From Pseudomonas phage 41C, in sequence record PV880424.1: DNA of 37,859 nucleotides, one strand, 5' to 3'. Both the position numbers and the translations under genes were made by a program. How positions within the stretch are numbered: position 1 is the stretch's first letter; each line of letters begins with the position of its first letter. Below are positions 37,357-37,859 of this stretch, piece by piece. The notes under the pieces are model-generated. The model searched no databases. It was not told the origin of the DNA and worked only from the letters and a program-made list of their open reading frames with translations.

Positions 37357-37410
37357 TTTTGATATTTCTTTGATAATCACATGATTTACCCGACGAACGG
37401 TATGATAGGG

Positions 37411-37640
37411 TTCTATAGGTATACCCTAAGACTACCCTTCGTAGGTTGCTGGTAAGGGGTAAGTGGCATAGGGTTCCCTTGATCCAGGTTCTATAGGTAT
37501 ACCCCTAAGGTTGTTCCATAGGTATACCCCAAGTCTACCTCTGTTGTCTATGTCCTGGCCTATTGCCCCTTATCCAGTAATATACCAACAGGTATCGGGG
37601 GTTGCCTTTGATCCAGGGCCTATAACCGGGGGTACCCCAA
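37411..37640. repeat. array of GGTATACC-centred repeats (CTATAGGTATACCCC(T)AAG) in terminal non-coding region
   Basis: Copies at about 37411-37430, 37489-37508 and 37516-37533. Degenerate copy GATCCAGGGCCTATAACCGGGGGTACCCC at about 37611-37639. GATCCAGG precedes copies 2 and 4. Confidence 0.6.
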
Positions 37641-37859
37641 AAGTCTATTTTATCCTCCGGTGTATCTGGGGAATATCCCCCCAGGAGTCCCCCAGATAAA
37701 GTGGGGGTGGCCTATCCCCAGGGGTATAGCCCCTAGCCCCTCCCTAGGATACCATAAGGCTAGTCCGTGGGTCAACCCCTAGGGATACCGTTCATCGGGT
37801 GGACCCAAGGGTATTCATAAGAAAAATCTTAGGGGAGTCCAGGGGGAGACCGGGGGGAA

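Follow-up and report, generated by a model that had tools for sequence, protein, structure and literature searches.

In phages lambda and SPP1, arrays of repeated small-terminase sites lie beside the packaging cut, namely the R3-R2-R1 gpNu1 sites of lambda cosB and pacL/pacR of SPP1. The concatemer junctions of T7 and T3 carry short exact direct terminal repeats (DTRs), with one DTR per junction and a requirement for the flanking unique sequence. The LUZ24/PaP3 group has supplied both therapeutic phages and a structural model of small terminases, and published work on it is split between cos and DTR packaging. In the terminase studies of PaP3 the phage was treated as a cos packager, with a 20-mer (GCCGGCCCCTTTCCGCGTTA) or a surrounding 239-bp fragment as the target of the small terminase, TerS, which binds DNA via HTH motifs. 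The only site used in published TerS-DNA experiments in the genus is this PaP3 'cos' 20-mer, which is different from the boxes described below. On the DTR side, a repeat was shown by experiment or coverage for LUZ24, tf, Delta and phiIBB-PAA2, with lengths of 182-186 bp reported for the last three, and the study of Delta described a DTR of 182 bp, with cos ends absent. The authors of the genome of phage tf, whose ends were mapped experimentally, proposed GATATCcc as the core site of the terminase.

The window (the whole stretch of DNA analysed, 37,859 nt) comes, judged by its sequence, from a LUZ24/PaP3-like phage (Bruynoghevirus) and makes up the right-hand 37.9 kb of the genome. Over its terminal 760 nt it is 93-97% identical to about 75 genomes of LUZ24/PaP3-type Bruynogheviruses of Pseudomonas aeruginosa, and the large virion protein supports the same placement. 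The layout is identical to that of LUZ24, with terS, tRNAs, two promoters, a spacer of ~325 bp and the DTR following one another in homologous sequence (94%), and the differences are only at the strain level. The DTR has 182 nt here and 184 in LUZ24, an intact GGTATACC palindrome is present in all three box copies of the window and in just one of LUZ24, and the terminal 28 nt of the window are of the KV2023 type, unlike those of LUZ24. The left ~7.7 kb of the phage lies outside the window; the left DTR copy is therefore not visible, and what is said below on both flanks of the DTR rests on relatives. The features of the right end are listed in Table 1.

Table 1. Features at the right end of the window, in order of position.
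Feature	Position	Strand	Description
Proximal sigma-70 promoter	37125-37153	-	TTGACA-17-TATAAT with TG, 12/12 match; homologous LUZ24 promoter at 44882-44917
E0 degenerate box	37229-37262	+	GGTTCTTAAG at 37229 with 2 mismatches; between the two promoters
Distal sigma-70 promoter	37323-37351	-	TTGACA-17-TATAAT, exact; annotated LUZ24 promoter at 45080-45115
S box	37389-37403	+	CCCGACGAACGGTAT; invariant in 13 phages; inverted partner inside the DTR
E1 box	37404-37440	+	GATAGGGTTCTATAG-GTATACC-CTAAGACTACCCTTC; ancestral, constrained copy
CCCTTGATCC box, then E2	37476-37510	+	E2 is GGTTCTATAGGTATACCCCTAAGG
E3	37512-37535	+	TGTTCCATAGGTATACCCCAAGTC; tandem 25-bp duplicate of E2
GCCTTTGATCC, then E4	37604-37645	+	E4 is GGGCCTATAACCGGGGGTACCCCAAAAGTC, a degenerate box adjoining the candidate cut site
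Boundary module	37633-37711	+	TACCCCAAAAGTCTATTTTATCCTCCGGTGTAT..GGAATATCCCCCCAG..AAAGTGGGGGTGGCC; putative terminase cut at ~37677/37678
DTR, right copy	37678-37859	.	182 nt visible, last T of the LUZ24-type end missing; aligned with LUZ24 1-184
Degenerate box-tail copies inside the DTR	37723-37784	+	GGTATAGCCCCTAGC at 37723, GGTCAACCCCTAGGG at 37770; repeat family D1
S' box	37786-37798	-	TACCGTTCATCGG; inverted S copy in the DTR, invariant

The last 182 nt align end to end with both DTR copies of LUZ24 (1-184 and 45442-45625, annotated as a 184-bp repeat_region), which are identical to each other. The right end is 92-94% identical to LUZ24 and finishes 1 nt from its terminus (...CCGGGGGGAA in the window, ...GGGGGGAAT in LUZ24). 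A repeat is annotated at the homologous position in LUZ24, Ka1 and Clew-6, nine GenBank records have their first or last base at the position corresponding to 37676/37677, and permuted records of relatives read right flank, single DTR, left flank. The segment is almost certainly the right copy of the already known ~184-bp DTR and, on this alignment, the end of the window is the physical end of the genome. The ends deduced here may be compared with those mapped in tf, where the right one is blunt and the left one has a 4-nt 3′ overhang. The CCCC/GGGG tracts reported in the original prediction were borne out, as the last 300 nt contain 16 G/C runs of at least four (53 per kb, ~7 times the density in the rest of the window; window mean 8 per kb), against a 99th percentile of 6 runs for segments of 300 nt. 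Since 37678-37859 is homologous to the LUZ24 repeat, this G/C-tract zone is mostly the right DTR and its boundary. Among the roles that had been offered for the whole terminal region, an origin, a pac site or a terminal repeat, the last one holds for 37678-37859 and fails for the palindrome array, which is outside the DTR, between it and the two leftward sigma-70 promoters.

Conservation was scored by column in an alignment of 13 P. aeruginosa phages that starts at the distal -35, covers the DTR and includes a clade with 75% identity in the spacer. Blocks invariant in all 13 were found at 37389-37403, 37404-37418, 37420-37440, 37604-37614, 37633-37665 and 37670-37684 and, within the DTR, at 37786-37798 and 37819-37834. 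The most conserved non-coding DNA of the region is a module of ~80 bp, spanning the inner DTR boundary, to which the blocks at 37633-37665 and 37670-37684 belong. It carries GGAATATCCC, with GGAATATCC as the candidate cut-site motif, and in every readable lineage it follows the consensus ACCC(C)TAAAGT, a T-rich stretch, CTCCGGTGTA, 6-8 nt, (A/G)ATATCC·CCCC (the dot marks the boundary), ~15 nt and AAGTGGGGGTGGCC. The module is kept in at least 10 lineages with TerS proteins just 49-72% identical. Wherever both DTR boundaries of a related genome could be read, the GG(A/T)ATATCC core of the module was found at the other one too; the P. aeruginosa clade, tf, NV1, UFV-P2, L008, L126, L128, L130 and L131 all have an ATATCC-type motif at each of the two boundaries. 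In the whole genome of LUZ24, GGGAATAT occurs at the two DTR boundaries only (right, GGGGAATATC·CCCCC; left, GGGGGGAAT·ATCCCTTGATCC). As the window shows just the right boundary and one half of the left site, the statement on both boundaries is drawn from relatives. Phage tf (Krylovvirus, 186-bp DTR) shares the module as CCCTAAAGT...ATATCC·CCCC...GTTGGGGTGGCC and has the same motif class, GATATCcc at both DTR ends, at the position relative to its DTR where the window has GGAATATCCC.

This conservation suggests that the module is probably the site of terminase cutting and recognition. A packaging signal had been among the roles foreseen for the region, and this is still its best reading, with the difference that the strongest candidate appears to be the boundary module rather than the palindromes. 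A hairpin around the cut site (repeat I3) was considered and rejected, as it is not conserved in PhiCHU, JD05 and tf. A long DTR in phage Bjorn, suggested by a second ATATCCCCC 740 bp away, was also rejected, in view of the left-boundary consensus of L126-L131. A pattern scan for the module in IMG/VR gave 93 matches, nearly all due to chance, and a stricter filter left four known phages. In the distant metagenomic lineage of L130 (2135-2525) and L131 (654-1036), whose TerS proteins are ~50% identical, CTATGGGAYATYCC was observed at both DTR boundaries, 195 bp apart. In the Vibrio relatives, with ~35% identical TerS, terS is preceded by genes, and no comparison with them was possible.

Two further invariant elements form an inverted repeat (I2) that links the unique flank with the DTR. 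Its 16-nt arms are 94% complementary (37388-37403, ACCCGACGAACGGTAT; 37785-37800, ATACCGTTCATCGGGT), contain the S and S' boxes, both invariant in the 13 phages, and are 381 nt apart. An S-related sequence, CGAYGAAYGGTA, was found in L008 and tf.

The original prediction had described three good and one degenerate copies of a motif with the palindrome GGTATACC as its core, at spacings of about 78 and 27 bp, two of them preceded by GATCCAGG. The good copies were recovered at 37418-37425, 37496-37503 and 37521-37528 and the degenerate one at 37616-37645; start to start, the first spacing is indeed 78 bp and the second is 25 bp, and GATCCAGG precedes copy 2 (at 37481) and the degenerate copy. With one more occurrence at 738, GGTATACC was observed four times in the window vs. 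0.52 expected, a number reached in 0 of 100 shuffles. The 15-mer CTATAGGTATACCCC matches at 37413, 37491 and 37516 with 1, 0 and 1 mismatches, respectively. Comparison of the 13 phages and other genera showed that the conserved unit is not the palindrome but a directional box, GGTTCTATAG-GTATACC-CCTAAG. The palindrome is broken in relatives, with GATATACC and GGTACTCC variants, the latter in the other box copies of LUZ24 and TL; dyad symmetry is not maintained in orthologous copies, and the deeply conserved part is the asymmetric GGTTCTATAG. The proposal that the palindromes bind a dimeric protein is thus weakened by their decay in relatives, by the single direction of the copies and by the conservation of GGTTCTATAG.

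Conservation of the boxes differs strongly from copy to copy. E1 is invariant in the 13 phages except for position 37419, the first G of GGTATACC, which is A in 5 of the 13. The exact 10-mer GGTTCTATAG is found in the same orientation in tf, NV1, UFV-P2, SCYZ1 and the metagenomic L008 and L118 (TerS 63-72% identical); across those genera the distal -35 is preceded by one copy at a distance of 48-71 bp, a second one is often found between the promoters, and L008, L118, NV1 and UFV-P2 have it exactly at the position of E0. In lineages with ~50% identical TerS the corresponding box is AGCTCTAGATGGTATACCCTAGG. No GGTTCTATAG was found elsewhere in the window or in LUZ24; all the box copies are co-oriented, clustered at the right genome end only, and spaced out of phase with the DNA helix. 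E0 contains three CTTAAG palindromes (37233, 37244 and 37255) exactly 11 bp apart; in the window as a whole CTTAAG occurs 23 times vs. ~9 expected. The E2/E3 stretch is the least conserved of the region (0.70-0.85). Its tandem unit is present once in PaP3, C2-10_Ab22, PhiCHU, JD05 and HZ2201, twice in the window, LUZ24, TL, Ka1, Clew-6 and KV2023, and three times in AUS034, with a 38-bp variant in PaP_Se. Still, the GGTTCTATAG that opens E2 is unchanged in all 13 phages. A search for conservation in relatives, as had been advised, found E1 near-invariant and E2/E3 variable in number.

Members of the box family lie also beyond the other end of the repeat. In LUZ24, CCCTTGATCC is located directly beyond the left DTR (shuffle p ~0.007) and the E4 core, CTATAWCCGGGGGT, 54-68 bp beyond it (shuffle p ~0.003), both in the same orientation as at the right end; the left-flank elements are CCCTTGATCC/CTATATCCGGGGGT. 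The family, made of a CTATAWCC/TATACC element and a CCYTTGATCC box, is therefore placed on both DTR flanks in direct orientation by relatives, as the left end of this phage is outside the window. In L130 and L131 an unsupervised repeat search returned a 25-27-nt box, AGGCCTAGACGTATACCAGTAGTAC (window orientation), on either side of the ~195-bp DTR, 356-366 bp apart, and it also picked out the cut motif at the two boundaries. At the right flank, the tail of E4 (TACCCCAAAAGTC) is the start of the boundary module. A literature search for the motif gave nothing relevant, and the paper on tf has no description of GGTTCTATAG boxes, though tf carries them. While the DTR is already known, the module and the boxes appear to be undescribed.

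The first protein gene inward of the array, beyond the tRNAs, is terS. The encoded protein matches Pfam Sf6_terminase and PDB 6W7T (the PaP3 TerS nonamer), and the terminase combines an Sf6/SF6-type small subunit with HTH motifs and a P22-like large subunit. We assign a probability of about 50% to the reading in which the region is the right flank of a concatemer junction, i.e., the packaging region of a LUZ24-like phage. Terminase would assemble on the boxes flanking the DTR during packaging and cut at the ATATCC motifs, and the single DTR of the concatemer would then be duplicated in the T7-type manner. The GGTATACC copies would be members of the box family, with E1, next to S, as the constrained copy, E4 fused to the cut-site module, and E2/E3 as recent tandem duplicates whose number is of little importance. 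The part of this reading that concerns the cut site is fairly secure; the identification of the boxes as binding sites of the terminase is tentative, and we would put it somewhat below even odds. The packaging reading is supported by the position of terS next to the array, the common orientation of the boxes, the presence of the E4 tail within the module and the boxes on both flanks. It is weakened by the copy number of E2/E3, which is unconstrained, and by the decay of their palindromes; Other points against it are the lack of helical phasing of the boxes and the positions of E0, which lies between the promoters with ~450 bp separating it from the cut, and of E1, which most lineages carry 48-71 bp upstream of the distal -35.

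Comparison with the described systems gives likenesses on both sides. As in lambda cosB and the SPP1 pac, several co-oriented boxes lie ~50-260 bp from the (here putative) cleavage site, between the cut and the small-terminase gene, and boxes are found on both sides of the cut region. Unlike in lambda and SPP1, the boxes are candidate sites, their sequences are unrelated to those of the known sites, and the ends are formed by a duplicated DTR and not by cohesive or headful ends. With T7 and T3 the region shares a short exact DTR, a single DTR per junction and a presumed need for flanking unique sequence. It differs from them in its P22/Sf6-like terminase, in the lack of a phage RNA polymerase and in the absence of a promoter through the junction.

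The elements of the junction can be set against the site used so far in studies of PaP3. The PaP3 'cos' 20-mer belongs to the left arm, where it lies ~845 bp past the DTR (2529-2548 in the PaP3 record, L017), and was proposed as the recognition site of TerS proteins that are 89-99% identical. It is absent from LUZ24, even with three mismatches allowed, and also from the window. As the TerS proteins of LUZ24 and PaP3 share 89% identity and hardly differ in their N-terminal region, and Delta has no cos ends, the junction elements are better-conserved candidates for recognition sites than the 20-mer. More speculatively, and with the odds rather against it, the boundary module and the co-oriented boxes could together be the true signal for packaging initiation and termination in Bruynogheviruses and sister genera, in which case the PaP3 'cos' 20-mer would not be the physiological site. 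If true, this would mean that a P22/Sf6-type terminase has been adapted to exact DTRs of 180-200 bp via two ATATCC cuts. The comparison defines candidate cis-signals, i.e., the ~80-bp cut-site module, ATATCC at both boundaries and directional boxes on both flanks, and purified, crystallised proteins for testing them directly already exist.

The features that count against packaging also fit a role of the boxes linked to the promoters. The original prediction had placed a late promoter next to the array, and an exact TTGACA-17-TATAAT was found there on the minus strand, with a second one further inward. The boxes could be upstream regulatory sites for these two right-end sigma-70 promoters, with late and tRNA transcription timed or boosted by a protein bound to them, either an early one of the phage or a nucleoid protein of the host, e.g., through relief of MvaT silencing over the AT-rich stretch. 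Each promoter has a box upstream of it, E1 for the distal and E0 for the proximal one, and the promoter zone (37050-37400), which both promoters occupy, has a GC content of 29-38%. In PaP3 the genes driven from the right end are reported as late, and their expression depends on protein synthesis and replication even with consensus sigma-70 promoters. However, the distance from box to -35 varies from 18 to 133 bp, boxes are present also in the left arm beyond the DTR, opposite in sense to the early promoters, and E4 is fused to the cut-site module. The distal promoter cassette (37243-37360) is moreover duplicated at 22390-22507 (93.3% identity over 119 bp), and this second late promoter has no box. 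We regard a regulatory role of the boxes as a serious but rather unlikely alternative, at roughly half the weight given to terminase binding. By eye, no convincing match to the IHF or Fis consensus was seen.

According to another rival reading, function resides in E1 and the boundary module only, and E2/E3 arose by slippage or unequal recombination and are neutral. The unit is indeed present in one, two or three copies in phages otherwise 90-98% identical, and it occupies the least conserved stretch, where palindromes are often broken. Yet the invariance of GGTTCTATAG at the start of E2 in the 13 phages, and the fact that at least one copy is always kept, make complete neutrality doubtful, and less probable still than a regulatory role.

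A replication origin, another role that had been foreseen, received little support and we consider it improbable. By analogy with the promoter-plus-AT-rich origins of T7, iterons by the AT-rich promoter region would load the phage primase-helicase and polymerase; the co-oriented repeats do adjoin the segment of 29-38% GC with its two strong promoters, and a primase/helicase and a DNA polymerase are among the phage's own gene products. On the other hand, the spacing of the repeats is irregular (78 and 25 bp), strains have 2 to 4 copies, no DnaA-type box (TTATNCACA, 1 mismatch allowed) was found within 2.5 kb, on the stretch beyond 35302, no initiator gene is annotated in LUZ24, and the best-conserved element is the DTR boundary and not the repeats.

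A small protein or a structured sRNA as the product of the region, for which hypothetical proteins annotated here in several GenBank records and a 62-aa ORF at 37511-37699 could speak, is highly improbable, as no ORF is conserved (the lengths and frames of small ORFs shift among near-identical relatives, and the original prediction had found none with a plausible start), no terminator was found, an Rfam scan placed only tRNAs above threshold (snoR83 and Noro_CRE below it), and the RNA folding z-scores of the two strands (-1.7 and -1.4) were not significant.

Several minor observations concern the promoters and the genes that they precede. The two promoters lead into the tRNA cluster and then terS, and the proximal one is taken to drive both, together with the late genes. 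No rightward promoters or terminators were found in the region; a TATGAT before E1 is without a usable -35, and CTATAGG was dropped as a T7/SP6-like promoter because LUZ24-type phages use the host RNA polymerase. The second copy of the distal cassette is located upstream of the gene for the 1055-aa virion protein, and its homology ends just before the S/E1 boxes. The tRNA cluster (36758-37086) comprises four genes (Pro, Tyr, Asp and Asn), and tRNA sets vary among close relatives, with Pro/Asp/Ile in Clew-6, Pro/Asn/Asn in JD05 and Tyr absent in several. Finally, the published tf/LUZ24-type nick consensus TACTRTGMC occurs five times on the + strand of the window (1961, 6821, 13233, 17329 and 22012) and not on the - strand, vs. 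~0.6 expected per strand, and LUZ24 has nine copies, all on the + strand.
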